Assembly (NCBI GenBank): GCA_032718475.1
Contig: JAUCBJ010001190.1
Span: forward strand, 1-50,939
Length of the DNA stretch: 50,939 nucleotides
Origin: Nemertoderma westbladi
Taxonomy: Eukaryota; Animalia; Xenacoelomorpha
Direction: 5' to 3'
Under the pieces are notes generated by a model. That model made no database searches, was not told the origin of the DNA, and worked only from the letters and a program-made list of their open reading frames with translations. The translations under genes were made by a program, and so were the position numbers. Each line of letters begins with the position of its first letter. Within the stretch, counting starts at the first letter, position 1. Positions 5,525 through 44,440 of the stretch are shown piece after piece.

Positions 5525-5638
5525 ATGACGACGTGTCAACATCTTGCTGATTTCCTCGACACACATGGTACAAAAAGTTTCCTTATTATCCATCGGAAAA
5601 TAATATTTAGCTCTTCCAAATCCGGATTAAAGAGAAAG
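5525..5638 (+). CDS. USP22: USP22 exon 1
   Basis: [38 protein letters not shown] followed by AAG|GTAATT; the CxHL...KRK pattern matches the USP22 N-terminus. Confidence 0.85.
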
Positions 5639-11600: not shown

Positions 11601-14600
11601 CAAAGTTTGTTCAAGTTATGATTGCTCAAGCAGCTTTCAAGAGTTTGCCAAACCAAATGGTAACTTTGTTCTCTGAGAAAAGAGCTTTCGAATGAGCCCA
11701 AAACGAACTCCATACGACCACTAGAACTGGAGATTATACAATTTGAAGATCTCCGATTACCGATAAGTCTATTCCGTGTATTCCCACAATGACCGCAGAG
11801 TCGCTTATTCAAGTCCCGTCTTTATTCCAGAAATTTGAAATTGTCTTATAAACTGATCAGTAGGTCCAGCAATCATAAAAAATTACCTTCTCGATTAAAA
11901 TGGTATGCTCTTTCTCGTGGAGACATCCAATTGGCACCACTGAGCACATAAATTTGCAGAAACTGAGTGCAAACCCCAAACGTCATCGCATTTACCGATA
12001 TCGCGATATATCGGAGCCAGAATCATCTACCCCAGATATCTCGAAAACTAAGAAAGATATGGGAAAACGGTTTCCATATTTAGATTTACCATGAAATTCT
12101 GCATCAGATAGGATATGTTTCAAAAATTCGACTTTTTGGTCAGAAAATGCGCTACAGCAAAAGGGTAGCAAAAGTGTGTAGGCCGAGAAATTGAATTATT
12201 TATAAATAACTCTAAAAATAAAATTTGGAAATTAATCTTGACCCAAGAAAACCAAAATTACAACGTCAAGTTGCTTTTTAAAGAACTCTTTTTGTGTGTA
12301 TATACCGTACTCCTATCGAAGTACCGTAACCAACTCTAAATACAGTCAGATTGAAATAGCTTCTTTCCAATTAATTGATTTGATTTCAGGAAATGTAAAG
12401 TTATTTCAGTGATGACAAAACTGACGTTAAAATATTTTTAGTTTTGTTTTTATAGCTGTTATCTTTTATCGAGTCTCTCAACCTTCTGTTCCCAACTATA
12501 TGTAACTCGTTACGTTTCTAGGCCTTGACTTCCCGCTGTTCAACGTGCAGCCAATCATTGGGTCGCATTCACAGTTGCGTTCATTGCGTTTACTTCGGTT
12601 GCTACCCCCGCAAGCACATACAGAATCACGCCAGGGAAACAGGGCACCATATCTGTTAGTACTGGGCCTCTAGTGCACTACAACTGGCCTATTATAGGGA
12701 GTGATTGTGGGTCGAATATGTCTTCTATTAAAACTTTGTTCGTTATTATTTGATTGTTTTGATTTTGGAATTGTTTTTAAAACATACATCAAAAGGCTGC
12801 CACTTCGTCTACTGGTGATATTCCTGGGCCTCCAATCACGAGGGCCAAGGCTCGATCCCTTTCCGTAGCAGCACTGTTTTGGCACAGTGCTTTAAATGCT
12901 GCAGCCTAGCTTCACCCATTCTTTCATCCTTTACTAGCCGATAAATTATTGGAACCAGGAAAACTTATAAAACAAACCTTCACATAGTTTAATATGTGAG
13001 AACACCCGTTGTGGTGAAAGTAAGCTCGTATAATTATCTGTAGAGTACAGTAATTAATATTCACCCTCGATTAATATAAAATAATTTATAATTGTAGCCG
13101 TTGATTTACGACTTGGGGCTACATATTGCCACCCTTGTGCCGACTATGTTTACAACGTAGACGTCGATAAATTAGCCAAGGACGCTTTCCAACGGAGTTG
13201 GGCTCGATGTGCAGGTATTTGTTATTAGAGAAAATAAATGTTGGTTAATAAATTGAACAATTCTTATTTACGAGTAAAAAGTTCGGTGAACCAGTGAAAC
13301 ACGAAACACCCGGGGGAACCCGAACGCACCTCTCCGGGCTTGTGTTGGGCGAGTAATTAAGGAGTGGAGTCTACTCTCTTGGGAGTTAGTGTGGCATCCC
13401 CGCCCCCTGTCTTATAGGTAACAGCCACGAGAGATGAGCCTACTGATAGTAATGGGGAGGGTTGCATCTAGGGAATAATCATTAGGCCTAATTCCTTCTT
13501 AGTTTCTAAACTGTAACACCCCCTTCCTACAATTCATAGTGACCAACTTTCTTCCAACCAACATGGCTCCAGTCTAATGGCTCCTCAATATATATTATCA
13601 CATTACGATACTTTTTTATTTAATTCTTTGTTGCAGCGCTTTAAATTCATTGTTTGTTACAGCGCTTTTTATTTTATTTTAATTTTATGTTACAGGCGCT
13701 TTTGATATTTGCCCAGACTGGGAACCAACCATCCAGGAACGGCAGTTACTCAATCGCGCTAAAAAGAGACGCAAAATAGTGGATAACTGCACTCTTGGTA
13801 GGATTCCTATAAATAGGTTTCTTAACTTGCAATTTTAACTTTAACTAACAATTTTACAACAATAACTATTTATTACATGGGGAATAAGTATAGGCTTTAT
13901 TTCCCCCGAGCTGTATAAGTTGACAAACGGGCTCAGCGACCAATAATATGTCACTAGGATTATGAGGGAAAAAATGTACTTTTTTTCATGCAATAATTTC
14001 GTTTAAAAGTATTTTTATACGTCATAATTATTGTGCGGCGATTGTAATTCTTATTTGATTGATTTATCGGGGAACTTATTTAAGGTTTCCACTGGAAGCT
14101 ATCAAGCTATGTGTGTAGTAATACTACTACTACTAGGATCGGCATGCTGCATTGCAGCTGCATTTTTAAGAATGCTGTGTCAGCTTGTCGACAAAATTGC
14201 ACCGCCACAACTCCCTATCACCCATTACATTTGCTAGATCATCCGCATCTTTAAGGCCAATGTCCTTTAAGATGCGTCTCAAGAAAGTCATGGGCTGTCC
14301 ACCATGCTTATTCACTCCATGAGGCTGCCAAAGCACAAGATTGTGCACTGGCTGGTCCTCACGGCGAAAGCAATGTCCTGCAAAGCGGAGGCGATTTTGT
14401 TCTAGTGTCAAGCTTGGGGGAACCATTGAGACACCTCCAATGTTATATAGTGTCTGGTTGGAGATGTGTGCATTGTACTTGACACAATGAACTGCCATCC
14501 GCCGAACTGACAAGTGAATGTGCCATCCAGAGATTTGATTATTGATAGTAACAATGTGTTGGCAAGCTGTATTTATCGAGGTGTTTGTTATTATACATTT

Positions 14601-17600
14601 ATTATAGGCTATATAGCTGGCTTTGAATTTAATACTCCATATCTCAAGAACCTGTGGCCTAGTGGTTGTAGTCTCGGCTTCCACCTCGAGGTCCCAGGTT
14701 CGAATCCGACACCACGCTGATGAGACCCAGTAAGGTCGAAACGCGTACGTGGTTTGGAGAGATATGAGATATTAATTTCAAGAAAAATTACGCGATTCCA
14801 AAATTTGTACACTACCCGGTTAAAAAGTACGCATGTGATGGGATTAGTCCTACAAATGCGCCAATAAAAGATAAGTTATTTTCGGTAAAATAAACTTATC
14901 ATTCGAGGTTAAGACCCCTAGATCCCTTCCTATAATAAATGTATCATAACAAACACCTCGAAAAATACAGCTTGCCAAAACCTTGTTACTATCAATAATC
15001 AAAAATCAGGGGCTAATAAAATGGCAGCTGGCTTTGAAATTAATACTCCATATCTCAAGAACCTGTGGCCTAGTGGTTGTTGTCTCGGCTTCCACCTCGA
15101 GGTCCTAGGTTCGAATCCGACACCACGCTGATGAGACCCAGTAAGGTCGAAACGCGTACGTGGTTTGGAGAGATATGAGATATTAATTTCAAGAAAAATT
15201 ACGCGATTCCAAAATTTGTACACTACCCGGTTAAAAAGTACGCATGTGATGGGATTAGTCCTACAATTGCGCCAATAAAAGATAAGTTATTTTCGGTAAA
15301 ATAAACTTATCATTCGAGGTTAAGACCCCTAGAACCCTTCCTATAATAAATCCAGAGATTTGATGTCCTCAGCAGTTAGAGCCCAGCATGGACTCTCATA
15401 GAGGAGTACTGGAACTACTGCTGCTCTAAATAATCGGACCTTACGTTTCCGATTAATTCTCGTTGACTTCCAAATCCTGGAAAGCCTATTCAAGGCTGCC
15501 CATGCCTTTCCCTTACGTATTCGAAGGTCCTCACCTGACTTCCGGATCCATGATCCCAGGTAACAGAAGTCATCCACATGCTCAAGCATACCATCTTTTG
15601 AGCTTATGCTCATCCGATCTGGAGAAGGGTCGTAGTGTAAATGCATTACAGTCTTGTATAGAGCTCCTGTATTTCCTACGAAACAGGATATGGTCTCTCT
15701 GGGACTTGTGACCACTGGGTTCACTATGAGTCATAGCTTTCCAGTTCGCTTCTTGAACTGGGTTCCAGCCGAAAACAATCCATTTCCAGAGATAAAATCC
15801 TGAAGATTGACGGAATTTCGGTTAACACTATTGCTATAGACCCAGGGCGAAGTAGGTGATTGATGCAGACTTGCATTAAAGTCTCCCAGGAATGTTAAGA
15901 ATGCATGCTGATCCACTCCATCAGTAGCTGCTTGTAGATTGTGGTATAAATTTTCCACCTCCTCTACAGGGGCAACACTAGTTGGAGAGTAGCACACAAT
16001 CAGAACCACCTTAGGAAACTTCTTAGCCAGTCTTCCAGAACATGAGAAGTGGCAACGGATGATGCGGTTAGAGATTTGGTCTATTTTGTCCAATGCTGCA
16101 TGTGCATTGCCACTATCATCTGCTGAGGCGAGTGCGAGTCGCCAACCGCCCCCATGTCCTTAATCAGAACCTCATCCGTCTGTCCAGTCTGCATTCGGTG
16201 CTCTTGAACACCCACTGCGCTAAGAGAAAGCTTATCTGCCAAGGCAGTCAGCTCACCTTGTCGCATTGGGGACCCGAGTGTTAGGGTGTTTACTGAGGCT
16301 AGTCTAGTGATTTGCCTCAGATTCACCAATGGCTTTGTTGGTCGGGGTGGAACATGAGAGTAGCCTCCAACTCCAGAATCCCTCTCCCCCTCGCAATCTG
16401 GCTTCGCTGGTGACCCAGTGTTTGGGCCAGAAAGGTCATCAGGAAAGGGACTCAAAGAATTGTTTGCCGCTCTCTCTCCAGTAGGGGGTGAGACAGGCAG
16501 CCGGTCAGGAGTTAACTGACGCCTGTGAGGCCGATTGTGTCCGGTCATTCCACTGGCCTCTAGTGGCTGGACCTGCGCATTACTAATGTAATCCATAGTG
16601 GGGGTTGGGGGGTGCTTTTTTGCCGAGTCAGCTCTCGGGGCAAATACCACACCCTGGTTTGCCATTCCACAGGGTGGGTGTCGCAGTGGAGTCAGATATG
16701 AGGCCCATCACCCATATCTACTCTGGCGCACATAACCCACCATTGGCTGTGCAGCTCATCTGCTGGGTCATGCCCTGTACCCTTTCATCCAGGTGCAGGT
16801 CGCAGTGAAGTGCTCTCAGACTGGACATGAGAACACTCTACTCCTGACCAGCCATTGGTAGATCACTATCTGCCTGGTCAGGCCATATACCCCTGCAGCC
16901 AAGTATATGGGTCCTTAATCCAGGACCAAGGGCGTCCTATTCCCAGAACGAAGGGGGTCCTAGTTAGTAGTTACAGGACCAGATTTGCCCTAGTAAGAGG
17001 GTCTATACATCTACAGGTGGCACCTCCTTTATGCTGCGTGGAGGTGGCAAGTTTTCTTGATCAATGACCTAGAATACCTGACCTGACCTTGTAGTAATAA
17101 CCAAAATGTGATTAAGCAAAATAAATACTACATGTATTTATTTAGCCCTGTGGCATAGCCCATTTAGTGTTACACTAATTTATACTTTTTTTAATTCATA
17201 TTGTTTGACCTTTAAGTAAATAGTTCACCTGTTCTTATATTTAGGGTTACGTGGACTAATTAATTTGGGACAGACTTGTTTTATGAACTGCATTCTACAA
17301 GCGATCGCCCACACACCAGTGCTACGCAACTATTTTCTATCCGATAAACACCATTGCCCGCCCTCTATGCTGTCCCAATGCGTCGCATGCGAACTCTCTG
17401 GTCTATTCCAGCAGGTAAGTCGTACAGCGGGTAATTTGTACAGCGGGTAAGTCGTACAGCGGGTAAGTCGTACAGCGGGTAAGTCGTACAGCGGGTAAGT
17501 CGTACAGCGGGTAAGTCGTACAGCGGGTAAGTCGTACAGCGGGTAAGTTGTACAGCGGGTAAGTCGTACAGCGGGTAAGTCGTACAGCGGGTAAGTCGTA

Positions 17601-20600
17601 CAGCGGGTAAGTCGTACAGCGGGTAAGTCGTACAGCGGGTAAGTCGTACAGCAGGTAAGTCGTACAGCGGGTAAGTCGTACAGCGGGTAAGTCGTACAGC
17701 GGGTAAGTCGTACAGCGGGTAAGTCGTACAGCGGGTAAGTCGTACAGCGGGTAAGTCGTACAGCAGGTAAGTCGTACAGCGGGTAAGTCGTACAGCGGGT
17801 AAGTCGTACAGCAGGTAAGTCGTACAGCGGGTAAGTCGTACAGCGGGTAAGTCGTACAGCGGGTAAGTCGTACAGCGGGTAAGTCGTACAGCGGGTAAGT
17901 CGTACAGCGGGTAAGTCGTACAGCAGGTAAGTCGTACAGCGGGTAAGTCGTACAGCGGGTAAGTCGTACAGCGGGTAAGTCGTACAGCGGGTAAGTTGTA
18001 CAGCGGGTAAGTCGTACAGCGGGTAAGTCGTACAGCGGGTAAGTCGTACAGCGGGTAAGTCGTACAGCGGGTAAGTCGTACAGCGGGTAAGTCGTACAGC
18101 GGGTAAGTCGTACAGCGGGTAAGTCGTCTAGCGGGTAAGTCGTACAGCGGGTAAGTCGTACAGCGGGTAAGTCGTACAGCGGGTAAGTCGTACAGCGGGT
18201 AAGTCGTGCAGCGGGTAAGTCGTACAGCAGGTAAGTTGTACAGCGGGTAAGTCGTACAGCGGGTAAGTCGTACAGCGGGTAAGTCGTACAGCAGGTAAGT
18301 CGTACAGCGGGTAAGTTGTACAGCGGGTAAGTCGTACAGCAGGTAAGTCGTACAGCGGGTAAGTCGTACAGCGGGTAAGTCGTATAGCGGGTAAGTCGTA
18401 CAGCAGGTAAGTCGTACAGCAGGTAAGTCGTACAGCGGGTAAGTCGTACAGCTGGTAAGTCGTACAGCGGGTAAGTCGTACAGCGGGTAAGTCGTACAGC
18501 GGGTAAGTCGTACAGCGGGTAAGTCGTACAGCAGGTAAGTCGTACAGCGGGTAAGTCGTACAGCGGGTAAGTTGTACAGCGGGTAAGTCGTACAGCGGGT
18601 AAGTCGTCTAGCGGGTAAGTCGTACAGCAGGTAAGTTGTACAGCGGGTAAGTCGTACAGCGGGTAAGTCGTACAGCAGGTAAGTCGTACAGCAGGTAAGT
18701 CGTACAGCAGGTAAGTCGTACAGCAGGTAAGTCGTACAGCGGGTAAGTCGTACAGCGGGTAAGTCGTACAGCGGGTAAGTCGTACAGCGGGTAAGTCGTA
18801 CAGCAGGTAAGTCGTACAGCGGGTAAGTCGTACAGCGGGTAAGTCGTACAGCAGGTAAGTCGTACAGCAGGTAAGTCGTACAGCAGGTAAGTCGTACAGC
18901 AGGTAAGTCGTACAGCAGGTAAGTCGTACAGCGGGTAAGTCGTACAGCGGGTAAGTCGTACAGCGGGTAAGTCGTACAGCGGGTAAGTCGTACAGCAGGT
19001 AAGTCGTACAGCGGGTAAGTCGTACAGCGGGTAAGTCGTACAGCGGGTAAGTCGTACAGCGGGTAAGTCGTACAGCGGGTAAGTCGTACAGCGGGTAAGT
19101 CGTACAGCAGGTAAGTCGTACAGCAGGTAAGTCGTACAGCAGGTAAGTCGTACAGCAGGTAAGTCGTACAGCAGGTAAGTCGTACAGCGGGTAAGTCGTA
19201 CAGCGGGTAAGTCGTACAGCGGGTAAGTCGTACAGCGGGTAAGTCGTACAGCAGGTAAGTCGTACAGCAGGTAAGTCGTACAGCGGGTAAGTCGTACAGC
19301 TGGTAAGTCGTACAGCAGGTAAGTCGTACAGCGGGTAAGTCGTACAGCAGGTAAGTCGTACAGCAGGTAAGTCGTACAGCAGGTAAGTCGTACAGCGGGT
19401 AAGTCGTACAGCTGGTAAGTCGTACAGCAGGTAAGTCGTACAGCGGGTAAGTCGTACAGCAGGTAAGTCGTACAGCGGGTAAGTCGTACAGCAGGTAAGT
19501 CGTACAGCAGGTAAGTCGTCTAGCGGGTAAGTTGTACAGCGGGTAAGTTGTACAGCGGGTAAGACGTACAGCAGGTAAGTCGTACAGCAGGTAAGTCGTA
19601 CAGCAGGTAAGTCGTACAGCGGGTAAGTCGTACAGCAGGTAAGTCGTACAGCGGGTAAGTCGTACAGCGGGTATAAGTCGTACAGCGGGTAAGTCGTACA
19701 GCGGGTATAAGTCGTACAGCGGGTAAGTCGTACAGCGGGTAAGTCGGGGTAAGTCGTACAGCGGGTAAGTCGTACAGCAGGTAAGTCGTACAGCAGGTAA
19801 GTCGTACAGCAGGTAAGTCGTACAGCAGGTAAGTCGTACAGCGGGTAAGTCGTACAGCGGGTAAGTCGTACAGCAGGTAAGTCGTACAGCAGGTAAGTCG
19901 TACAGCGGGTAAGTCGTACAGCGGGTAAGTCGTACAGCAGGTAAGTCGTACAGCGGGTAAGTCGTACAGCAGGTAAGTCGTACAGCGGGTAAGTCGTACA
20001 GCGGGTATAAGTCGTACAGCGGGTAAGTCGTACAGCGGGTAAGTCGGGGTAAGTCGTACAGCGGGTAAGTCGTACAGCAGGTAAGTCGTACAGCAGGTAA
20101 GTCGTACAGCGGGTAAGTCGTACAGCGGGTAAGTCGTACAGCAGGTAAGTCGTACAGCGGGTAAGTTGTACAGCGGGTAAGTCGTACAGCGGGTAAGTCG
20201 TACAGCGGGTAAGTCGTACAGCGGGTAAGTCGTACAGCGGGTAAGTCGTACAGCGGGTAAGTCGTCTAGCGGGTAAGTCGTACAGCGGGTAAGTCGTCTA
20301 GCGGGTAAGTCGTACAGCGGGTAAGTCGTACAGCGGGTAAGTCGTACAGCGGGTAAGTCGTCTAGCGGGTAAGTCGTACAGCGGGTAAGTCGTCTAGCGG
20401 GTAAGTCGGGGTCAGTCGTACAGCGGGTAAGTCGTATAGCGGGTAAGTCGTACAGCGGGTAAGTCGTACAGCGGGTAAGTTGTACAGCGGGTAAGTCGTA
20501 CAGCAGGTAAGTCGTACAGCGGGTAAGTCGTACAGCTGGTAAGTCGTACAGCGGGTAAGTCGTACAGCAGGTAAGTCGTACAGCGGGTAAGTCGTACAGC

Positions 20601-23600
20601 AGGTAAGTCGTACAGCGGGTAAGTCGTACAGCAGGTAAGTCGTACAGCGGGTAAGTCGTACAGCAGGTAAGTCGTACAGCGGGTAAGTCGTACAGCAGGT
20701 AAGTCGTACAGCGGGTAAGTCGTACAGCGGGTAAGTCGTACAGCGGGTAAGTCGTACAGCGGGTAAGTCGTACAGCGGGTAAGTTGTACAGCAGGTAAGT
20801 CGTACAGCGGGTAAGTTGTACAGCGGGTAAGTCGTACAGCAGGTAAGTCGTACAGCGGGTAAGTCGTACAGCGGGTAAGTCGTACAGCGGGTAAGTCGTC
20901 TAGCGGGTAAGTCGTACAGCGGGTAAGTCGTCTAGCGGGTAAGTCGTACAGCGGGTAAGTCGTACAGCTGGTAAGTCGTACAGCGGGTAAGTCGTACAGC
21001 GGGTAAGTCGTACAGCGGGTAAGTCGTACAGCGGGTAAGTTGTACAGCAGGTAAGTCGTACAGCGGGTAAGTTGTACAGCAGGTAAGTCGTACAGCGGGT
21101 AAGTTGTACAGCAGGTAAGTCGTACAGCAGGTAAGTCGTACAGCGGGTAAGTCGTACAGCGGGTAAGTCGTACAGCGGGTAAGTCGTCTAGCGGGTAAGT
21201 CGTACAGCGGGTAAGTCGTACAGCGGGTAAGTCGTACAGCGGGTAAGTCGTACAGCGGGTAAGTTGTACAGCAGGTAAGTCGTACAGCGGGTAAGTCGTA
21301 CAGCGGGTAAGTCGTACAGCGGGTAAGTCGTCTAGCGGGTAAGTCGTACAGCGGGTAAGTCGTCTAGCGGGTAAGTCGTACAGCGGGTAAGTCGTACAGC
21401 TGGTAAGTCGTACAGCGGGTAAGTCGTACAGCGGGTAAGTCGTACAGCGGGTAAGTCGTACAGCGGGTAAATTGTACAGCAGGTAAGTCGTACAGCGGGT
21501 AAGTTGTACAGCGGGTAAGTCGTACATCAGGTAAGTCGTACAGCGGGTAAGTCGTACAGCGGGTAAGTCGTACAGCGGGTAAGTCGTACAGCGGGTAAGT
21601 CGTACAGCGGGTAAGTCGTACGCAGGTAAGTCGTACAGCGGGTAAGTCGTACAGCGGGTAAGTCGTACAGCGGGTAAGTCGTACAGCGGGTAAGTCGTAC
21701 AGCGGGTAAGTCGTACAGCGGGTAAGTCGTACAGCGGGTAAGTCGTACAGCAGGTAAGTCGTACAGCAGGTAAGTCGTACAGCAGGTAAGTCGTACAGCG
21801 GGTAAGTCGTACAGCGGGTAAGTTGTACAGCAGGTAAGTCGTACAGCGGGTAAGTCGTACAGCGGGTAAGTCGTACAGCTGCAGGTAAGTCGTACAGCGG
21901 GTAAGTTGTACAGCAGGTAAGTCGTACAGCGGGTAAGTCGTACAGCAGGTAAGTTGTACAGCGGGTAAGTCGTACAGCGGGTAAGTCGTACAGCGGGTAA
22001 GTTGTACAGCGGGTAAGTCGTACAGCGGGTAAGTCGTACAGCGGGTAAGTCGTACAGCGGGTAAGTCGTACAGCGGGTAAGTCGTACAGCGGGTAAGTCG
22101 TACAGCGGGTAAGTCGTACAGCGGGTAAGTTGTACAGCGGGTAAGTCGTACAGCGGGTAAGTCGTACAGCGGGTAAGTCGTACAGCGGGTAAGTCGTACA
22201 GCGGGTAAGTCGTACAGCGGGTAAGTCGTACAGCGGGTAAGTCGTACAGCGGGTAAGTCGTACAGCGGGTAAGTCGTACAGCGGGTAAGTCGTACAGCGG
22301 GTAAGTCGTACAGCGGGTAAGTCGTACAGCAGGTAAGTCGTACAGCGGGTAAGTCGTACAGCGGGTAAGTCGTACAGCGGGTAAGTCGTACAGCAGGTAA
22401 GTCGTACAGCGGGTAAGTCGTACAGCGGGTAAGTCGTACAGCGGGTAAGTCGTACAGCGGGTAAGTCGTACAGCGGGTAAGTCGTACAGCGGGTAAGTTG
22501 TACAGCAGGGAAGTCGTACAGCGGGTAAGTCGTACAGCGGGTAAGTTGTACAGCAGGTAAGTCGTACAGCGGGTAAGTCGTACAGCGGGTAAGTCGTACA
22601 GCGGGTAAGTCGTACAGCGGGTAAGTCGTACAGCGGGTAAGTCGTACAGCGGGTAAGTCGTATACAGCGGGTAAGTCGTACAGCGGGTAAGTCGTACAGC
22701 GGGTAAGTCGTACAGCGGGTAAGTCGTACAGCGGGTAAGTCGTACAGCGGGTAAGTCGTACAGCGGGTAAGTCGTACAGCGGGTAAGTCGTACAGCGGGT
22801 AAGTCGTACAGCGGGTAAGTCGTACAGCGGGTAAGTCGTACAGCGGGTAAGTCGTACAGCGGGTAAGTCGTACAGCGGGTAAGTCGTACAGCAGGTAAGT
22901 CGTACAGCGGGTAAGTCGTACAGCGGGTAAGTCGTACAGCGGGTAAGTCGTACAGCGGGTAAGTCGTACAGCGGGTAAGTTGTACAGCAGGTAAGTCGTA
23001 CAGCGGGTAAGTCGTATAGCGGGTAAGTCGTACAGCGGGTAAGTCGTACAGCGGGTAAGTCGTACAGCGGGTAAGTCGTACAGCGGGTAAGTCGTACAGC
23101 GGGTAAGTCGTACAGCGGGTAAGTCGTACAGCGGGTAAGTCGTACAGCGGGTAAGTCGTACAGCGGGTAAGTCGTACAGCGGGTAAGTTGTACAGCGGGT
23201 AAGTCGTACAGTGGGTAAGTCGTACAGCGGGTAAGTCGTGCAGCGGGTAAGTCGTACAGCGGGTAAGTCGTACAGCGGGTAAGTCGTACAGCTGCAGGTA
23301 AGTCGTACAGCGGGTAAGTTGTACAGCAGGTAAGTCGTACAGCGGGTAAGTCGTACAGCAGGTAAGTTGTACAGCGGGTAAGTCGTCTAGCGGGTAAGTC
23401 GTCTAGCGGGTAAGTCGTACAGCGGGTAAGTCGTACAGCGGGTAAGTCGTACAGCGGGTAAGTCGTACAGCGGGTAAGTCGTACAGCGGGTAAGTCGTAC
23501 AGCGGGTAAGTCGTACAGCGGGTAAGTTGTACAGCGGGTAAGTCGTACAGTGGGTAAGTCGTACAGCGGGTAAGTCGTGCAGCGGGTAAGTCGTACAGCG

Positions 23601-26600
23601 GGTAAGTCGTACAGCGGGTAAGTCGTACAGCGGGTAAGTCGTACAGCGGGTAAGTCGTACAGCGGGTAAGTCGTACAGCGGGTAAGTCGTACAGCGGGTA
23701 AGTCGTACAGCGGGTAAGTCGTACAGCAGGTAAGTCGTACAGCGGGTAAGTTGTACAGCGGGTAAGTCGTACAGTGGGTAAGTCGTACAGCGGGTAAGTC
23801 GTGCAGCGGGTAAGTCGTACAGCGGGTAAGTCGTACAGCGGGTAAGTCGTACAGCGGGTAAGTCGTACAGCGGGTAAGTCGTACAGCGGGTAAGTCGTAC
23901 AGCGGGTAAGTCGTACAGCGGGTAAGTCGTACAGCGGGTAAGTCGTACAGCGGGTAAGTCGTACAGCGGGTAAGTTGTACAGCGGGTAAGTCGTACAGTG
24001 GGTAAGTCGTACAGCGGGTAAGTCGTGCAGCGGGTAAGTCGTACAGCGGGTAAGTCGTACAGCGGGTAAGTCGTACAGCTGCAGGTAAGTCGTACAGCGG
24101 GTAAGTTGTACAGCAGGTAAGTCGTACAGCGGGTAAGTCGTACAGCAGGTAAGTTGTACAGCGGGTAAGTCGTCTAGCGGGTAAGTCGTCTAGCGGGTAA
24201 GTCGTACAGCGGGTAAGTCGTACAGCGGGTAAGTCGTACAGCGGGTAAGTCGTACAGCAGGTAAGTCGTACAGCGGGTAAGTCGTACAGCGGGTAAGTCG
24301 TACAGCGGGTAAGTCGTACAGCGGGTAAGTCGTACAGCGGGTAAGTTGTACAGCAGGTAAGTCGTACAGCGGGTAAGTCGTATAGCGGGTAAGTCGTACA
24401 GCGGGTAAGTCGTACAGCGGGTAAGTCGTACAGCGGGTAAGTCGTACAGCGGGTAAGTCGTACAGCGGGTAAGTCGTACAGCGGGTAAGTCGTACAGCGG
24501 GTAAGTCGTACAGCGGGTAAGTCGTACAGCGGGTAAGTCGTACAGCGGGTAAGTCGTACAGCGGGTAAGTTGTACAGCGGGTAAGTCGTACAGTGGGTAA
24601 GTCGTACAGCGGGTAAGTCGTGCAGCGGGTAAGTCGTACAGCGGGTAAGTCGTACAGCGGGTAAGTCGTACAGCTGCAGGTAAGTCGTACAGCGGGTAAG
24701 TTGTACAGCAGGTAAGTCGTACAGCGGGTAAGTCGTACAGCAGGTAAGTTGTACAGCGGGTAAGTCGTCTAGCGGGTAAGTCGTCTAGCGGGTAAGTCGT
24801 ACAGCGGGTAAGTCGTACAGCGGGTGAGTCTTACAGCAGGTAAGTCGTACAGCGGGTAAGTCGTACAGCGGGTAAGTCGTACAGCGGGTAAGTCGTACAG
24901 CGGGTAAGTCGTACAGCGGGTAAGTCGTACAGCAGGTAAGTCGTACAGCAGGTAAGTCGTACAGCGGGTAAGTCGTACAGCGGGTAAGTCGTACAGTGGC
25001 TTTATTAATTTCTTTTATTGCTATTGAAATTTGCAACATTGGATCCTTTTTATTTAATAAATACTTAGTGGTAATTCAAATTTAAATTGACCGCAAGTGA
25101 AATAAAGTATCGTTCATTGTTTTGGTTATAAAACACCGCCATGTAACCTGCTCTCCTTTCTTTACCTTAATATTTTAAATTAAATTAAATTAATTTTTTA
25201 AAGCCTCTAAACACTTTTGATGTCTGGGGTTATTTTTCGCCATTAACTCAAAAAAAATCTGTATTTGGGCCCCTTTAACTTTAAAACAACAAGTTTAGTC
25301 CGGCAGCTAAGTAGCTTTTCCTGCATAATTATATTATCTTCTGCAGTTTTACTAACTATTATGCTGTGATTGTCGTCTATTATTATTAATAACAACAAAT
25401 TGACCTTTGACGTTTTAATTTTTAGTTCTTCTCCGGCGATAAGAATCCCTACGTTCCCTACAAACTGCTCCATTTAATCTGGACTAACGCGCGCCACCTA
25501 GCGGGCTACGAGCAACAGGACGCCCACGAGTTCCTAATAGCGGCGCTAGATGTCCTACACCGACACAGTCGGGACCAACCCAGACGGGAGTGTCTCACCA
25601 ACGGTGTCCTCCCCAACGGTACTCTCCCCCTCGCCAGTAGAAACAGCCCCTCCCCGCCCCCCGAGAATTGCCCCACTACGCAGTGCAGTTGTATCATAGA
25701 CCAGGTCTTTACTGGCGGTCTACAGAGCGACGTCGTCTGTCAGATATGCCACGGTGTATCGACCACAGGTGAGTTCTACACCGGTTTAAGTTTACTTGTT
25801 AAATATCGATTCATTCCGAGAGAATAATGGGGTCGTTTGAATAATTATTAACCTCTATTTTAGAGTAAGGCGGGGGGGGGATTGATGCTAGTGGCTCGTT
25901 ATTCTAACCAAAACAATAAACGGAAGTCAATAGAACATGATACAGTTTTATTTTTTGGAAGTAATCAGCTGTTATTTACGTAAATTTTCCCTGGAGAGGG
26001 ATGGATTTTTATTGCGTCGTTAGCCCCCCCCCCCCCCCCCCCCCCCCTCCCCCAACTGCTATGTTAACTATACCAAAACGCCAGTACTGACATAGAAACC
26101 TAATTAAAACGATAAAACTGTTTTGAATATAATTAAAAAGTTATAAATAGATGAATACTCTGGCGTCCCGAATAGACGGGGTGGGTGGAAAAATTTCATT
26201 ATGCTAATATTCGGGGTGGCTGGAATAAACGTGGTGGGTGGAAAATCAAAATTTAATATACTTACTTAACATACAGTATAGGCGTACAGGTACAGTTAGT
26301 ACCTACGGCTACCGGTGGTATATTCGCTACACGGTTTTGGTTTTCTTTCACTTTCAACTCTCATTTATTATGAGAAACGTTTATTTACTCATAATAAAAA
26401 ATGTACTAAATTTTTTTGAAAAAATTAATAGGGCCCGTCTATTCGGGACTCCAGAGTACCTGGCCAATATTTTCCCAATTTTGGTATCGTTCATGTCTGG
26501 AGGATTGCATAAGACAACATTATAAATCACACTTACCTTATAAGCTGTCATCTACTATTTAATTGTAGTCAACGGGGCCATACAATTCCTGGTAACAAAG

Positions 26601-28385
26601 TCTAAGTCGGTCCCCGAATTAGTAAGGGTTTGAGTTTGGGACCGGCGTTATTGTAAGTTACACATAATGTTCCTCTAGGGGCTCCCTTAATAACTGTCCA
26701 ATAATACTGCATTCCATTATATAGTCGACCCGTTCTGGGATATCAGTCTGGAGATATCTGGTTGCTATGATACGGTAGAACCTCAGAGGTGTTCCAGTCA
26801 GATGAGTAACAGCAGTTCCGACTCTGTCTCTTTGGGTAGGTTTAATTCTATTTTTTTATTATATTATATTAATCTATATTACTATTTCTAGGTAAGTTTA
26901 ACATGTTCACTTCAGCTTCATACGCTAGGTTTTGATTTAAATACGGCTACTTAGGTTGTTTTAATACGTTTAATCGGGGAAGTTTAATACGTCTCTTAAA
27001 ACGCGTATCTGCAGGGTGATGCTGGGTCTTAACAATGAGATGTTGCCATAGTTGTATACCCTCATAGCTTATGTGTGCATCATGGGCGATGTTGTGCGCA
27101 TCCTGTTATATGTACCGGTCCGGTACCATCCATAGACCTGGTGCAGCATCATTTAGAGCCCAACATGATGGGCTGTCATAGAGCAGCACAGCTCCACTTC
27201 TGCACGGAAAGGGCGTACCCTTTAGGAACCTTTTTTGGAGATTACTTTATATCACTGGAGATTACTTTATAACACTGGAGATTACTTTATGTAACTGGAG
27301 ATTACTTTATGTCACTGGAGATTACTTTAATACTGGAATTGCGTTTAATTAGATGGTTCGACATATACATCATCGGATGACCAACCTCCTACGTCATTGG
27401 CTGACTGCCTCCGTCGGTTTACGAAACCGGAACATTTGGGCGGCGCCAAAATCCGTTGTGGTACCTGCCAAAGTTACGAGGAAAGTACAAAGCAACTGAC
27501 TTGGAGGACCCTCCCGGTGGTAGCGTGTTTCCATCTCAAGGTAAGTGCTAAGTAAATGTGCAACCCTTTCGCTGGTAAGGTGTTTCCATCTCAAGGTAAG
27601 TATAAAGCAACTCTCTACGACCCTTTCTCTGGTAAGGTATTTCCATCTCAAGGTAAGTGCTAAGCAAATGGGCAACCCTTTGGCTGGTAAGGTGTTTCCA
27701 TCTCAAGGTAAAAAACAAGGCAACAATGGTTTGGGGACCCTGCTCGTGGTAACGTGTTTCCATTTCAAGGAAAGTACACCGCAACTGATTTGGGGAACCA
27801 TCTGTTTCCCTCTAGTTCAGATTGCCCAGGGGTTTTAGCGTCGGACAGTTTTCGTAAAGCTGTTTTAAGGAACCAACCTTAACCCACCAAGCTGTAATGG
27901 GTACCCGGTTTATTTTTACTGTTCGAAAATTGAGAAAATTGTCGGATATATATAAATTCAACCTTGGGGATATGGGTGCCCCCCGCGCTGCCTTACAGGT
28001 AACATGAGTGGGACATTTATATTTCGTCTTCATTTAAAACGTAAGTAATGCAACTGCAAATTTTAATATATATTGCATTTATAATAATATATATTGCACT
28101 TATAATAATATATATTGCATTTATAATAATATATATTGCATTTATAATAATATATATTGCACTTATAATAATATATATTGCACAGAAATCTAGAGATTGC
28201 ATTGCACTTTATTTTCAGCGTTTCGAACATTCAACGAAATCTCGTCGAAAAGTGACGTCACCAATATCGTTTCCAGAGCAACTGGACATGGCGCCGTATA
28301 TGTCGTCACATCGTTCAGTAACCGCTCGACACAGTCGCAACAATAACAGTGAGAGTAACAAACAACTTAATCCGGCTGAGTACAT
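5525..28385 (+). CDS. USP22: Ubiquitin carboxyl-terminal hydrolase 22-like (USP22/Nonstop/Ubp8 family); exons 1-9, 3' end not in window
   Basis: join(5525-5638,12522-12654,13098-13214,13696-13797,17245-17414,25426-25768,26725-26835,27353-27540,28219-28385) is 1445 nt, all GT-AG, with consistent phases and no stops. It encodes a ZnF-UBP domain, Cys box [29 protein letters not shown] and CFHLKRFEH, collinear with USP22 as I recall it. Confidence 0.95.
7508..10914. mobile_element. Non-autonomous hAT-like DNA transposon
   Basis: Ends CAGTGCGGATTAA...TTAATCCGGCACTG with an 8-bp TSD CATGATCC at 7500-7507 and 10915-10922. The empty site is visible in the RTE copy at ~15549. Confidence 0.85.
8403..9943. 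mobile_element. Non-autonomous piggyBac-like element nested in the hAT element
   Basis: TTAA|CCCTAT...ATAGGG|TTAA ends; GGGGGTCATATTGACC near both ends; internal degenerate ~178-bp tandem repeats at ~8890-9610. Confidence 0.8.
11270..11936. mobile_element. MITE/foldback with ~225-bp inverted arms
   Basis: 11270-~11499 is the slightly diverged reverse complement of ~11710-11936 (TGCCAATTGGATGTCTCCACGAGAAAGAGCA ... TGCTCTTTCTCGTGGAGACATCCAATTGGCA). Confidence 0.85.
12522..12654 (+). CDS. USP22: USP22 exon 2 (ZnF-UBP)
   Basis: TTTCTAG|[44 protein letters not shown]|GTTAGT. Confidence 0.93.
13098..13214 (+). CDS. USP22: USP22 exon 3
   Basis: TTGTAG|(S)[38 protein letters not shown]|GTATTT. Confidence 0.93.
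13239..13528 (-). mobile_element. Probable LTR remnant with polypurine tract
   Basis: On the minus strand AGGAAGGGGG (13528-13519) is immediately followed by TGTTACAG...CCAACA (280 bp, TG...CA) with an internal TATAAG. No TSD found. Confidence 0.5.
13696..13797 (+). CDS. USP22: USP22 exon 4
   Basis: TTACAG|(G)[33 protein letters not shown]|GTAGGA; WEPT...KRRKI..NCT is typical of USP22. Confidence 0.93.
14655..14707 (+). promoter_or_regulatory. tRNA-derived internal Pol III promoter (repeated in every monomer)
   Basis: A box TGGCCTAGTGG 14655-14665 and B box GGTTCGAATCC 14697-14707 at tRNA spacing; anticodon-arm-like CTCGG-CTTCCAC-CTCGAG; no acceptor stem. Confidence 0.85.
14711..14753 (+). 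ncRNA. Type I minimal hammerhead ribozyme, copy 1
   Basis: Stem I ACCACG/CGTGGT, core CTGATGA, stem II GACC-CAGTAA-GGTC, GAAA, minimal palindromic stem III ACGCGT, cleavage triplet GTA (cut after 14747). Confidence 0.92.
15122..15164 (+). ncRNA. Type I minimal hammerhead ribozyme, copy 2
   Basis: Identical to 14711-14753, 411 bp downstream. Confidence 0.92.
17245..17414 (+). CDS. USP22: USP22 exon 5 (catalytic Cys box)
   Basis: TTTAG|(G)[37 protein letters not shown]...CELSGLFQQ|GTAAGT. Confidence 0.97.
17409..24996. repeat. 16-bp satellite CAGC(G/A)GGTAAGTCGTA, ~470 copies, beginning at the exon 5 donor
   Basis: Uninterrupted 7.6-kb array; the first unit is the real exon/intron junction CAGCAG|GTAAGTCGTA. 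Confidence 0.98.
25426..25768 (+). CDS. USP22: USP22 exon 6
   Basis: TTTTAG|[47 protein letters not shown]...[28 protein letters not shown]|GTGAGT. Confidence 0.97.
26158..26456. mobile_element. Tc1/mariner-type MITE
   Basis: TA|CTCTGGCGTCCCGAATAGACGGG ... CCCGTCTATTCGGGACTCCAGAG|TA. Confidence 0.85.
26725..26835 (+). CDS. USP22: USP22 exon 7
   Basis: TATAG|(V)[36 protein letters not shown]|GTAGGT; phase matches both neighbouring exons. Confidence 0.9.
27236..27337. repeat. 20-bp minisatellite (CTGGAGATTACTTTATRNCA, ~5 copies) just upstream of the exon 8 acceptor
   Basis: Direct tandem repeats ending ~15 nt before the AG at 27351-27352. Confidence 0.95.
27353..27540 (+). CDS. USP22: USP22 exon 8
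   Basis: AATTAG|(D)[62 protein letters not shown]|GTAAGT. Confidence 0.95.
27481..27799 (+). repeat. Diverged tandem copies (55-62 bp) of the exon 8 3' end plus donor
   Basis: TTTCCAT(C/T)TCAAG ends at 27540, 27595, 27652, 27707 and 27769. The first three are followed by GTAAGT, the fourth by GTAAAA. Confidence 0.92.
28064..28182. repeat. 21-bp AT-rich minisatellite upstream of the exon 9 acceptor
   Basis: TAATATATATTGCA(T/C)TTATAA, ~5.5 copies. Confidence 0.95.
28219..28385 (+). CDS. USP22: USP22 exon 9
   Basis: TTTTCAG|[31 protein letters not shown]...NPAEY|GTAAGT (phase 2). Confidence 0.95.
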
Positions 28386-28781: not shown

Positions 28782-31700
28782 CTGGTAGTAGATATATCTA
28801 TCTTACAGGAGCAGTAAAACAGCTTCCTCACTGGTAGTAATATCTTCCACAAACAGCTTCCTCACTGGCAGTAGATATATCTATCTTACAGGAGCAGTAA
28901 AACAGCTTCCTCACTGGTAGTAGATATATCTATCTTACAGGAGCATTAAAACAGCTTCCTCACTGGTAGTAGATATTTCTTCCTCAAACAGCTTCCTCAC
29001 TGGTAGTAGATATATCTATCTTACAGGAGCAGTAAAAACAGCTTCCTCACTGGTAGTAGATATATCTATCTTACAGGAGCAGTAAAACAGCTTTCCTCAC
29101 TGGTAGTAGATATATCTTCCACAAACAGCTTCCTCACTGGTAGTAGATATATCTATCTTACAGGAGCATTAAAACAGCTTCCTCACTGGTAGTAGATATA
29201 TCTATCTTACAGGAGCAGTAAAAACAGCTTCCTCACTGGTAGTAGATATATCTATCTTACAGGAGCAGTAAAACAGCTTCCTCACTGGTAGTAGATATAT
29301 CTTCCACAAACAGCTTCCTCACTGGTAGTAGATATATCTATCTTACAGGAGCATTAAAACAGCTTCCTCACTGGTAGTAGATATATCTATCTTACAGGAG
29401 CAGTAAAACAGCTTCCTCACTGGTAGTAGATATATCTATCTTACAGGAGCATTAAAACAGCTTCCTCACTGGTAGTAGATATATCTATCTTACAGGAGCA
29501 GTAAAACAGCTTCCTCACTGGTAGTAGATATATCTATCTTACAGGAGCAGTAAAACAGCTTCCTCACTGGTAGTAGATATATCTTCCACAAACAGCTTCC
29601 TCACTGGTTGTAGATATATCTATCTTACAGGAGCAGTAAAAACAGCTTCCTCACTGGTAGTAGATATATCTATCTTACAGGAGCAGTAAAAACAGCTTCC
29701 TCACTGGTAGTAGATATATCTTCCACAAACAGCTTCCTCACTGGTAGTAGATATATCTTTCACAAACAGCTTCCTCACTGGTAGTAGATATATCTATCTT
29801 ACAGGAGCAGTAAAACAGCTTCCTCACTGGTAGTAGATATATCTATCTTACAGGAGCAGTAAAAACAGCTTCCTCACTGGTAGTAGATATATCTTCCACA
29901 AACAGCTTCCTCACTGGTAGTAGATATATCTATCTTACAGGAGCAGTAAAAACAGCTTCCTCACTGGTAGTAGATATATCTTCCACAAACAGCTTCCTCA
30001 CTGGTAGTAGATATATCTATCTTACAGGAGCATTAAAACAGCTTCCTCACTGGTAGTAGATATATCTATCTTACAGGAGCATTAAAACAGCTTTCCTCAC
30101 TGGTAGTAGATATATCTTCCACAAACAGCTTCCTCGCTGGTAGTAGATATATCTATCTTACAGGAGCAGTAAAACAGCTTCCTCACTGGTAGTAGATATA
30201 TATATCTTACAGGAGCAGTAAAAACAGCTTCCTCACTGGTAGTAGATATATCTATCTTACAGGAGCATTAAAACAGCTTCCTCACTGGTAGTAGATATAT
30301 CTATCTTACAGGAGCATTAAAACAGCTTCCTCACTGGTAGTAGATATATCTATCTTACAGGAGCAGTAAAACAGCTTCCTCACTGGTAGTAAATATATCT
30401 ATCTTACAGGAGCAGTAAAACAGCTTCCTCTTCCTCACTGGTAGTAGATATATCTATCTTACAGGAGCATTAAAACAGCTTCCTCACTGGTAGTAGATAT
30501 ATCTATCTTACAGGAGCAGTAAAACAGCTTCCTCACTGGTAGTAAATATATCTATCTTACAGGAGCAGTAAAACAGCTTCCTCTTCCTCACTGGTAGTAG
30601 ATATATCTATCTTACAGGAGCATTAAAACAGCTTCCTCACTGGTAGTAGATATATCTATCTTACAGGAGCAGTAAAAACAGCTTCCTCACTGGTAGTAGA
30701 TATATCTTCCACAAACAGCTTCCTCACTGGTAGTAGATATATCTATCTTACAGGAGCATTAAAACAGCTTCCTCACTGGTAGTAGATATATCTATCTTAC
30801 AGGAGCATTAAAACAGCTTTCCTCACTGGTAGTAGATATATCTTCCACAAACAGCTTCCTCGCTGGTAGTAGATATATCTATCTTACAGGAGCAGTAAAA
30901 CAGCTTCCTCACTGGTAGTAGATATATATATCTTACAGGAGCAGTAAAAACAGCTTCCTCACTGGTAGTAGATATATCTATCTTACAGGAGCATTAAAAC
31001 AGCTTCCTCACTGGTAGTAGATATATCTATCTTACAGGAGCATTAAAACAGCTTCCTCACTGGTAGTAGATATATCTATCTTACAGGAGCAGTAAAACAG
31101 CTTCCTCACTGGTAGTAAATATATCTATCTTACAGGAGCAGTAAAACAGCTTCCTCTTCCTCACTGGTAGTAGATATATCTATCTTACAGGAGCATTAAA
31201 ACAGCTTCCTCACTGGTAGTAGATATATCTATCTTACAGGAGCAGTAAAACAGCTTCCTCACTGGTAGTAGATATATCTTCCACAAACAGCTTCCTCACT
31301 GGTAGTAGATATATCTATCTTACAGGAGCATTAAAACAGCTTCCTCACTGGTAGTAGATATATCTATCTTACAGGAGCAGTAAAACAGCTTCCTCACTGA
31401 TAGTAGATATATCTTCCACAAACAGCTTCCTCACTGGTAGTAGATATATCTATCTTACAGGAGCATTAAAACAGCTTCCTCACTGGTAGTAGATATATCT
31501 ATCTTACAGGAGCAGTAAAACAGCTTCCTCACTGGTAGTAGATATATCTTCCACAAACAGCTTCCTCACTGGTAGTAGATATATCTTCCACAAACAGCTT
31601 CCTCACTGGTAGTAGATATATCTTCCACAAACAGCTTCCTCACTGGTAGTAGATATATCTATCTTACAGGAGCAGTAAAACAGCTTCCTCACTGGTAGTA

Positions 31701-34396
31701 GATATATCTATCTTACAGGAGCAGTAAAAACAGCTTCCTCACTGGTAGTAGATATATCTATCTTACAGGAGCATTAAAACAGCTTCCTCACTGGTAGTAG
31801 ATATATCTATCTTACAGGAGCATTAAAACAGCTTTCCTCACTGGTAGTAGATATATCTTCCACAAACAGCTTCCTCACTGGTAGTAGATATATCTATCTT
31901 ACAGGAGCAGTAAAAACAGCTTCCTCACTGGTAGTAGATATATCTATCTTACAGGAGCATTAAAACAGCTTCCTCACTGGTAGTAGATATATCTATCTTG
32001 CAGGAGCAGTAAAACAGCTTCCTCGCTGGTAGTAGATATATCTATCTTACAGGAGCAGTAAAACAGCTTCCTCACTGGTAGTAGATATATCTATCTTACA
32101 GGAGCATTAAAACAGCTTCCTCACTGGTAGTAGATATATCTATCTTACAGGAGCATTAAAACAGCTTCCTCACTGGTAGTAGATATATCTATCTTACAGG
32201 AGCAGTAAAACAGCTTCCTCACTGGTAGTAAATATATCTATCTTACAGGAGCAGTAAAACAGCTTCCTCACTGGTAGTAGATATTTCTTCCTCAAACAGC
32301 TTCCTCACTGGTAGTAGATATATCTATCTTACAGGAGCATTAAAACAGCTTTCCTCACTGGTAGTAGATATATCTTCCACAAACAGCTTCCTCACTGGTA
32401 GTAGATATATCTTCCACAAACAGCTTCCTCACTGGTAGTAGATATATCTATCTTACAGGAGCAGTAAAACAGCTTCCTCACTGGTAGTAGATATTTCTTC
32501 CTCAAACAGCTTCCTCACTGGTAGTAGATATATCTATCTTACAGGAGCAGTAAAAACAGCTTCCTCACTGGTAGTAGATATATCTATCTTACAGGAGCAG
32601 TAAAACAGCTTCCTCACTGGTAGTAGATATTTCTTCCTCAAACAGCTTCCTCACTGGTAGTAGATATATCTATCTTACAGGAGCAGTAAAAACAGCTTCC
32701 TCACTGGTAGTAGATATATCTATCTTACAGGAGCAGTAAAACAGCTTCCTCACTGGTAGTAGATATTTCTTCCTCAAACAGCTTCCTCACTGGTAGTAGA
32801 TATATCTATCTTACAGGAGCAGTAAAAACAGCTTCCTCACTGGTAGTAGATATATCTATCTTACAGGAGCAGTAAAACAGCTTCCTCACTGGTAGTAGAT
32901 ATTTCTTCCTCAAACAGCTTCCTCACTGGTAGTAGATATATCTATCTTACAGGAGCAGTAAAACAGCTTCCTCACTGGTAGTAGATATTTCTTCCTCAAA
33001 CAGCTTCCTCACTGGTAGTAGATATATCTATCTTACAGGAGCATTAAAACAACTTCCTCACTGGTAGTAGATATATCTATCTTACAGGAGCAGTAAAACA
33101 GCTTCCTCACTGGTAGTAGATATATCTTCCACAAACAGCTTCCTCACTGGTAGTAGATATATCTTCCTCAAACAGCTTCCTCACTGGTAGTAGATATATC
33201 TATCTTACAGGAGCAGTAAAACAGCTTCCTCACTGGTAGTAGATATATCTATCTTACAGGAGCAGTAAAACAGCTTTCCTCACTGGTAGTAGATATTTCT
33301 TCCTCAAACAGCTTCCTCACTGGTAGTAGATATATCTATCTTACAGGAGCATTAAAACAGCTTTCCTCACTGGTAGTAGATATATCTTCCACAAACAGCT
33401 TCCTCGCTGGTAGTAGATATATCTTCCACAAACAGCTTCCTCACTGGTAGTAGATATATCTTCCACAAACAGCTTCCTCGCTGGTAGTAGATATATCTAT
33501 CTTACAGGAGCATTAAAACAGCTTTCCTCACTGGTAGTAGATATATCTTCCACAAACAGCTTCCTCACTGGTAGTAGATATATCTATCTTACAGGAGCAG
33601 TAAAAACAGCTTCCTCACTGGTAGTAGATATATCTATCTTACAGGAGCAGTAAAACAGCTTCCTCACTGGTAGTAGATATATCTATCTTACAGGAGCAGT
33701 AAAACAGCTTTCCTCACTGGTAGTAGATATTTCTTCCTCAAACAGCTTCCTCACTGGTAGTAGATATATCTATCTTACAGGAGCATTAAAACAGCTTTCC
33801 TCACTGGTAGTAGATATATCTTCCACAAACAGCTTCCTCGCTGGTAGTAGATATATCTTCCACAAACAGCTTCCTCACTGGTAGTAGATATATCTTCCAC
33901 AAACAGCTTCCTCGCTGGTAGTAGATATATCTATCTTACAGGAGCATTAAAACAGCTTTCCTCACTGGTAGTAGATATATCTTCCACAAACAGCTTCCTC
34001 ACTGGTAGTAGATATATCTATCTTACAGGAGCAGTAAAAACAGCTTCCTCACTGGTAGTAGATATATCTATCTTACAGGAGCAGTAAAACAGCTTCCTCA
34101 CTGGTAGTAGATATATCTTCCTCAAACAGCTTTCCTCACTGGTAGTAGATATATCTTCCACAAACAGCTTCCTCACTGGTAGTAGATATATCTATCTTAC
34201 AGGAGCAGTAAAAACAGCTTCCTCACTGGTAGTAGATATATCTATCTTACAGGAGCAGTAAAACAGCTTTCCTCACTGGTAGTAGATATATCTTCCACAA
34301 ACAGCTTCCTCACTGGTAGTAGATATATCTTCCACAAACAGCTTCCTCACTGGTAGTAGATATATCTTCCACAAACAGCTTCCTCGCTGGTAGTAG
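28782..34396. repeat. Two-unit satellite (49-bp and 37-bp monomers interleaved), roughly 125 units
   Basis: CTGGTAGTAGATATATCTATCTTACAGGAGCAGTAAAACAGCTTCCTCA (49) and CTGGTAGTAGATATATCTTCCACAAACAGCTTCCTCA (37). Confidence 0.98.
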
Positions 34397-34506
34397 CTAC
34401 ATCTTCTTCCACATTTTCCTTTCCTTATGTATTTCGTTCGCAGGACCTTCATAATTCTCCAATAATCTCCGCCCAGTTTGCTATAAAGCTGCTTTACGCT
34501 CTCAGT

Positions 34507-43100: not shown

Positions 43101-44213
43101 CTGTAGGAGGCGTAGGGACATACTGAGAAATAATGTCGCACTGCGATATAAAACTGGAAAATATGTCGCCCTGGCGATTTGAAGTGCGAAATTAATTCCA
43201 TACAAATAAATATAATATCTAATGTGATGTGATGAAATATATATCTTTTTGTAATGTGTGATGATTAATCTTTGACTAGTCGCCCTAGCGACTGGAGAAC
43301 TGTTGAGACACTCATTCAAATTATATTTCAGACTTTCGTCTTGTGTACCAGGTTTGGTTTAATTTCATCAAAATAGTTATTAGTCTTTAAACGTTTGCCG
43401 AATTATTATAGCCTATGAAACTGGGTGATTTCATTGTCCTATCATTGCCCAATGGCCATTAATAATTGAGCAGAAACATATTGTAATGTCAGCCACAGAG
43501 CTTACCTATACTTCGAAAACAAATTGTATGCCGAAAATGTTGTAGAGCTATTTCATAGCAATGGCATCAGACACCATATTTTGAATCATATTTAGGGCAA
43601 TCGTAATGTTGGTCACACGAGACAAATCTCTGTTGCAGATGTCACGTAACTTATAGATACTGAAAGTATTTGAATTAGTTCAGCCATTCCATATGTGGAA
43701 TTTTTTCTTCTGATTTTAAGAAACAACCTGGAATTTAAGATTTATTCTTTAACTTTTAGGAAAAATGCGCAATGATGTTAGAATGCTATCTTGGACTTCC
43801 AAGTAAATATTTTACATAGTGAAGCGACAACTTATAAGAAAAATAATAAAATAATATACGAACATAATAAAAACAAACTTTGGTACCGGTATCACATTAC
43901 AGGTTATCAAGATATTATTATTATTATCTAACTGGTCTATTATAAGTGACATACTCAGGTAGTCACACATAGAGATACTCAGACATCCTCGGAAGTTAGT
44001 GCAGCAGTTTATATAATGATTGTTTATTCTCTAAGTTCGTTATTAATCCATTTGTAATATATTTCTAGAGTTAATTAATCTATTTATGGTGTCTAGAACT
44101 TCATATCTTCAAGAGGCAGTTACAGGTTCCTCACTGGTAGTAGCTACATCTTACTTTCGCATTCTCCAATAATCTCCTTCCAGTGTGATATAAAGCTGCT
44201 TTAAGCTCTCGGT

Positions 44214-44265
44214 TTATTCCAATAAAGAGTCACTCTCTTCAGGATCCGGTTTAGTTTCTTGTTTC
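44214..44265 (-). CDS. Last coding exon of a paralogous Ig-TM gene (upstream exons not found in window)
   Basis: TTTCAG|G-KQETKPDPEESDSLLE*; same length and phase as 34507-34558, and the 3' flank is alignable too. Confidence 0.75.
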
Positions 44266-44440
44266 CTGAAATATATATTTCGAGACTGAGACGAATTGAC
44301 AAACTTTATAAATTTTGCATTCAGAAGTTATGTACATACTTTTGCGTAAAGTTGCACTTTACGTGAGCCAAGTGGTTTGTTACCCGGAGGAACATAGTGA
44401 GTGAGAGTGAAGCGTCTCGAGGTCGGAACAACACTGAGAG

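Follow-up and report, generated by a model that had tools for sequence, protein, structure and literature searches.

A 474-copy minisatellite across the USP22 exon 5 splice donor of Nemertoderma westbladi, probably tolerated as a neutral repeat

Intron 5 of the Nemertoderma westbladi USP22 gene consists almost entirely of a 16-bp minisatellite with 474 copies; its unit reaches across the splice donor of exon 5 and repeats it. A spliced, RNA-like contig shows use of the first of these donors, and the array is likely a neutral passenger that USP22 tolerates because this donor is the one used. The array is a real, unusually large case of an already known class of repeats.

Results and Discussion

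The USP22 locus

The sequence analysed (the window) comprises positions 1–50,939 of the forward strand of contig JAUCBJ010001190.1 (GCA_032718475.1), i.e., 50,939 nt in total. It harbors a USP22/nonstop gene with nine exons between 5525 and 28385, in which every intron follows the GT..AG rule and the exons form an open frame of 481 codons (Table 1). Both zf-UBP and UCH domains are scored on the exons by Pfam, and USP22 proteins are the best hits, which assigns the encoded protein to the USP22/27/51 (Ubp8, nonstop) group; its closest structure matches are yeast Ubp8. The exon numbering of an earlier, sequence-only reading holds in this model, with a spliced contig running over exons 2 to 5 and ending in stretches that match exons 1 and 6.

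The USP22 exons carrying the His box of the catalytic triad were not found within the window by motif scan and tblastn. The 22.5 kb downstream of exon 9 (28386–50939), which lack these exons and contain genes on the opposite strand, represent either a very long intron 9 with nested genes or a broken assembly. By arithmetic, 696 nt of the spliced contig lie beyond exon 9, which would suffice for the missing exons.

Table 1. Features of the USP22 gene and its junction-spanning repeats in the window.
Feature	Position	Strand	Basis
Exon 1, coding part	5525..5638	+	Open frame; tblastn/homology; loose end of X4 contig before exon 2 matches exon 1 end
Exon 2 (zf-UBP)	12522..12654	+	Open frame, Pfam, spliced X4 contig
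Exon 3	13098..13214	+	Open frame, spliced X4 contig
Exon 4	13696..13797	+	Open frame, spliced X4 contig
Exon 5 (catalytic Cys box)	17245..17414	+	Open frame; Pfam UCH (E 3e-12); spliced X4 contig
474-copy minisatellite; 16-bp unit composed of the exon 5 end (6 nt) and the intron 5 start (10 nt)	17409..24996	+	TRF, unit splitting
Authentic 5' splice site, cut 17414|17415	17412..17420	+	X4 contig: the 30 nt that open exon 6 follow directly on 17414 as a loose end
Intron 5	17415..25425 (8011 nt)	+	Gene model
Second donor copy (17431), weakened, CGG|GTAATTTG (GTAATT)	17428..17438	+	Unit splitting; X1 contig with 0 differences to 17445
In-frame TAA cutting off any in-frame exon 5 extension	17448..17450	+	Frame reading
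Unique 3' part of intron 5 (429 nt) with T-rich acceptor	24997..25425	+	Gene model, acceptor composition
Exon 6	25426..25768	+	Pfam UCH; USP22/nonstop homologues 47–59% identical (best 120 of 555 matches); X4 contig loose end
Exon 7 (predicted)	26725..26835	+	Open frame, homology
Exon 8 (predicted)	27353..27540	+	Open frame, homology
Second junction-spanning repeat, at the exon 8 donor (55-bp unit, x3.5)	27518..27711	+	TRF, donor scan
Exon 9 (predicted)	28219..28385	+	Open frame, homology

Anatomy of the array

TRF reports the array with a period of 16, 474.2 copies, 94% matches and a score of 13484. Of the 473 complete units obtained by splitting at each of the 474 donor sites, 459 have a length of 16 bp. 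With 7.6 kb in the assembly, the array makes up 94.6% of intron 5, close to the approximately 470 copies and 95% estimated in the sequence-only reading. As that reading had also noted, nearly all copies contain G|GTAAGT (465 of 474 sites, the core being broken at the remaining nine) and many carry the perfect consensus CAG|GTAAGT, which is present at 96 sites and hence at 95 downstream of the real donor. An 11-mer identical to that of the real donor is common to 90 of the 474 sites, the real donor counted in. The 16-bp unit is absent elsewhere in the window, a check which the same reading had proposed.

Two parts of the initial description have to be revised. The unit had been given as a CAGCAG| junction; it is indeed a junction-spanning 16-mer, but the commonest unit is of the CGG|GT type (305/473) and the exact CAG|GT unit accounts for only 73/473. 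Moreover, the copies had been regarded as hundreds of equal donors. The second donor is mutated, and the next one equal to the real donor is the 16th, which lies 240 nt downstream and would yield a 410-nt exon. Together with the CGG|GT majority, this indicates that the donors are not all equal. The proposal that downstream donors shift the frame or meet an in-frame stop is confirmed, as splicing from each of the 473 downstream donors leads to a premature stop codon, in 471 cases inside the retained array and in two cases in a frame-shifted exon 6.

The main mRNA uses the first donor

Of six public runs, none of them recorded as RNA, the contigs of four (X1–X4) were compared with positions 12400–17445. 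In X4, depth is zero in three intron bins, indicating that this run is RNA-like rather than genomic. It contains one spliced contig of 2390 nt (depth 2712) that covers exons 2, 3, 4, and 5 with GT..AG joints, and whose loose ends correspond to the end of exon 1 before exon 2 and to the start of exon 6 behind 17414. Thus, the first donor is joined to position 25426. The depth of this contig alone reproduces the last two bins exactly (2132.6 and 914.9), so that no other X4 contig is present on 17415–17445, i.e., the first two repeat units, and no contig of this run extends into the array beyond 17414. One contig of one run therefore supports that the main USP22 mRNA uses the first, genuine donor, in line with the earlier expectation that splicing has to pick this site. 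This holds for the main form, since donor use is read from the contigs of one RNA-like run, and contigs drop rare variants, which are also hidden by NMD.

A known class of repeats

Minisatellites spanning exon-intron borders were named “mirage” minisatellites in amphioxus, where splicing is undisturbed (PMC3087553, PMC3902484). Examples are Adh3 (Canestro et al. 2002) and the globins BflGb6/9 (PMC3087553) as well as PGBD5 and TnC (PMC3902484). As in USP22, the amphioxus units span the border and copy the splice signal, and there are several such repeats per gene. As further similarities, no aberrant mRNA is reported in amphioxus and edge units escape homogenisation. Features of the class found here are a unit of minisatellite size, a first unit spanning the border and a repeated splice signal, and normal mRNA from the authentic site is seen, for the main form, in one contig of one run. 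The copy number is different: the globin repeats are described with 10–160 bp units in 3–6 copies (PMC3087553), whereas the USP22 array has 474 copies in 7.6 kb.

In human F7, 6-16 (IFI6), CBS, LMNB2, and PDGFA, the first unit of a minisatellite likewise spans the donor, with 5–26 copies as summarised in PMC1557585. The 37-bp VNTR in F7 intron 7 resembles the USP22 array in that its first unit lies over the donor and only the most upstream copy is used, although the downstream copies are identical (PMC1557585). The same text describes F7 minigenes in which the most upstream intact donor wins, while pseudo-sites with perfect consensus drew some splicing (PMC1557585). The latter result counts against neutrality, because 95 downstream USP22 copies are perfect CAG|GTAAGT sites. 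F7 carries 5–9 copies of a weak donor, in contrast to 474 copies spaced 16 nt apart in USP22, and the arrays of LMNB2, PDGFA, 6-16, and CBS are given with 10–26 copies (PMC1557585). Two pseudo-sites are described as used in 6-16 and CBS (PMC1557585); no such use is seen in the USP22 X4 contig. Compared with the 3–26 copies of the published cases considered here, the USP22 array stands out by more than 10-fold, which makes extrapolation from these cases uncertain. Neither a published array as large as this one nor any in USP22 turned up in a search that largely excluded the subscription literature, so that this is a weak negative.

Little indication of selection on the donor copies

An alternative to neutrality, which we consider unlikely, is that some transcripts use downstream donors such as the 2nd, 3rd, or 16th and are directed to NMD, so that the length and make-up of the array tune USP22 output. 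The stop codon behind every downstream donor and the abundance of perfect consensus sites would fit such a rheostat, as would the leakage described for 6-16 and CBS (PMC1557585) and a CBS VNTR that is linked to lower activity in the title of a paper. The donor actually observed in the X4 contig, however, is solely the first, and the second is broken. Leakage by itself would, moreover, leave no sign of selection.

The variants within the array were analyzed in units of modal length. Singleton substitutions comprise five in the seven donor-core positions versus two in the nine other positions. In contrast, amplified substitutions affect none of the seven core positions but five of the nine others (Fisher p 0.034); an insertion in the core occurs three times. 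Of all results, only this weak shortage of amplified core variants points towards a function, and it loses significance without the CpG positions (p 0.15), and three control arrays in the window are as invariant, with amplified variants at 1/49, 1/53, and 4/53 positions of their modal-length units, which led us to reject selection on the donor core. Thus, nothing clearly points to selection for maintaining the donor copies. Masking of the decoys by RNA structure was likewise rejected: the array RNA folds no better than shuffled sequences (z 0.28), and the first donor is not predicted to be more accessible than the copies, with an unpaired probability of 0.005 compared to means of 0.002–0.051.

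Length of the array

We regard it as quite improbable that the repeat exists but owes its 7.6-kb length to inflation or collapse during assembly. In favor of such an artefact, the run comparison reached only the first two units, with no array-spanning read; the longest exact repeat inside the array measures 454 bp; and X2, an independent sample with allelic differences, has only a ~26-fold excess of summed depth at the array edge, where its contig ends at 17419. On the other hand, depth at the array edge in X1 is ~200x that of single-copy sequence, as a rough estimate from summed contigs, and an X1 contig matches the window exactly, the mutated second unit included. The three unique pieces of X1 are free of differences, and this run is treated as not independent. 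Little excess depth at the edge is seen in X3. With regard to length polymorphism, another trait of the mirage class, the ratios of X1 (about 200) and X2 (26) differ, but neither represents a copy number. Within the array, rare indel units come back three to four times, a block of 26–27 units is present three times (maximum of 8 in 100 shuffles), and the variant make-up shifts, with CAG-type donors thinning out along the array, from 21 to 4 per 50. The internal structure of the array thus looks biological.

U1 binding and stepwise splicing as improbable roles

A role as a landing array that sequesters U1, or that protects long downstream introns from premature cleavage, appears very improbable. 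Although 452 of the 474 sites (325+90+31+6) form 9 of 11 possible pairs with U1, G-U pairs counted, and the gene runs for more than 22 kb past exon 9, the array contains no poly(A) signals to mask and shows no selection signal, and one locus is small relative to the cellular U1 pool.

Stepwise splicing along a ladder of the 95 internal AG|GT sites is hardly credible. Recursive splicing sites juxtapose AG|GT and are preceded by a polypyrimidine tract. The array shares the AG|GT but neither the tract nor an AG-free zone in front of it: T accounts for 0.14–0.24 of the upstream sequence compared to 0.38–0.71 at the eight real acceptors of the gene, the pyrimidine share is 0.33–0.43, and there are at least 4 competing AGs in the upstream 40 nt compared to 0–3 at the real acceptors. 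Furthermore, an intron of 8 kb is short and needs no recursive splicing. The sequence-only reading had itself doubted classical recursive splicing, and rightly so. Its suggestions of a U1 sink, an NMD rheostat, or a splicing ladder find no support, given that the first donor alone is observed, that selection leaves no clear sign and that the array belongs to a known, mostly silent class.

Repeats at other exon borders and elsewhere in the window

Apart from the intron 5 array, tandem repeats account for 25% of the window, including another 5.6-kb array. A second junction-spanning repeat copies the exon 8 donor at 27596, 27653, and 27708 (+55, +112, and +167), with a decayed copy at 27770; all copies are out of frame, and the one at +55 pairs with U1 better at +7/+8 than the real exon 8 donor. 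Inside the gene, four of five arrays overlap an exon border or come within 40 nt of one. Leaving out the intron 5 array, three of four do so (p 0.0005; 0.009 when each large intron is counted as only 800 nt). As this clustering was noticed after the fact and in one gene, it is a lead only. It could be combined with the decoy donors into a broader reading, in which tandem repeats of this genome are born preferentially at exon borders and the 474-donor array, through its variable length, sets how many USP22 transcripts are lost to NMD. We consider this improbable; if true, no natural test of first-donor choice would be more extreme than this array.

A 20-bp array (27236–27337) stops 16 nt short of the exon 8 acceptor, and a 21-bp array (28064–28182) stops 37 nt short of that of exon 9. 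The 5.6-kb array (28782–34406) has mixed 49/50/37-bp units and is situated in the predicted 3' UTR of a membrane-protein gene on the minus strand, which has an exon at 34825–35151 without Pfam hit and a last exon from about 34558. A paralogue of this last exon (44161–44274, 83% identical) retains a single unit within 44104–44274 and thus shows the pre-expansion state. Two 53-bp arrays of opposite orientation (47512–48622 and 49486–50939), separated by an 860-nt spacer, resemble the end or centre of a foldback-type element, and a near-perfect palindrome of ~200 nt is located at 820–1030 (centre near 908). Frames for an ISXO2-like transposase (PF12762; 39036–39902) and a LINE-type reverse transcriptase (PF00078; 44776–46659) are found on the minus strand. 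Intron 4 consists almost wholly (14090–17131) of a very high-copy interspersed repeat, with depths of 10^5–10^6 in the DNA runs, that includes a 412-bp unit recurring at 36966–37852.

Proposed origin of the array

Extra residues directly after LFQE are present in 3 of 120 homologues, all of them vertebrate, and two of these insertions begin with V. Their position at the exon 5/6 codon border, with V as expected for a read-through GT, suggests that intron 5 existed before the array. Gain of the intron by tandem duplication (Rogers model) was considered and rejected on the basis of these same-position insertions, which are indirect evidence, and of the 429 nt of the intron that are unique and carry an acceptor of their own.

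The left flank of the array ends with CAGCAG, and the right flank starts with CAGTGG 16 nt on in the unit register, with the majority sequence CAGCGG in between. As the simplest seed, the CAG ending the exon may have slipped against a second CAG located 16 nt inside the old intron, which is still recognizable as CAGTGG at the 3' edge; this shift of 16 nt would have duplicated the junction. Growth could have proceeded by slippage and unequal exchange, copying blocks of 26–27 units. CpG-type transitions represent 133 of the 192 substitutions relative to the consensus; 90 of these transitions are the CGG/CAG switch, whose direction is ambiguous.

The choice of the first donor would result from exon definition over the 170 nt of exon 5 together with a 5'-to-3' priority, probably aided by the mutated second donor and the distance of 240 nt to the nearest equal one. 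Transcripts leaking to other donors would meet a premature stop codon and presumably be removed by NMD, as noise rather than regulation.

Conclusions

The USP22 array offers no evidence of a new function. What it illustrates is that 95 perfect decoy donors downstream of the real one need not prevent a conserved chromatin gene from producing correct mRNA, and this makes it a good natural substrate for studying 5' splice-site choice based on position.
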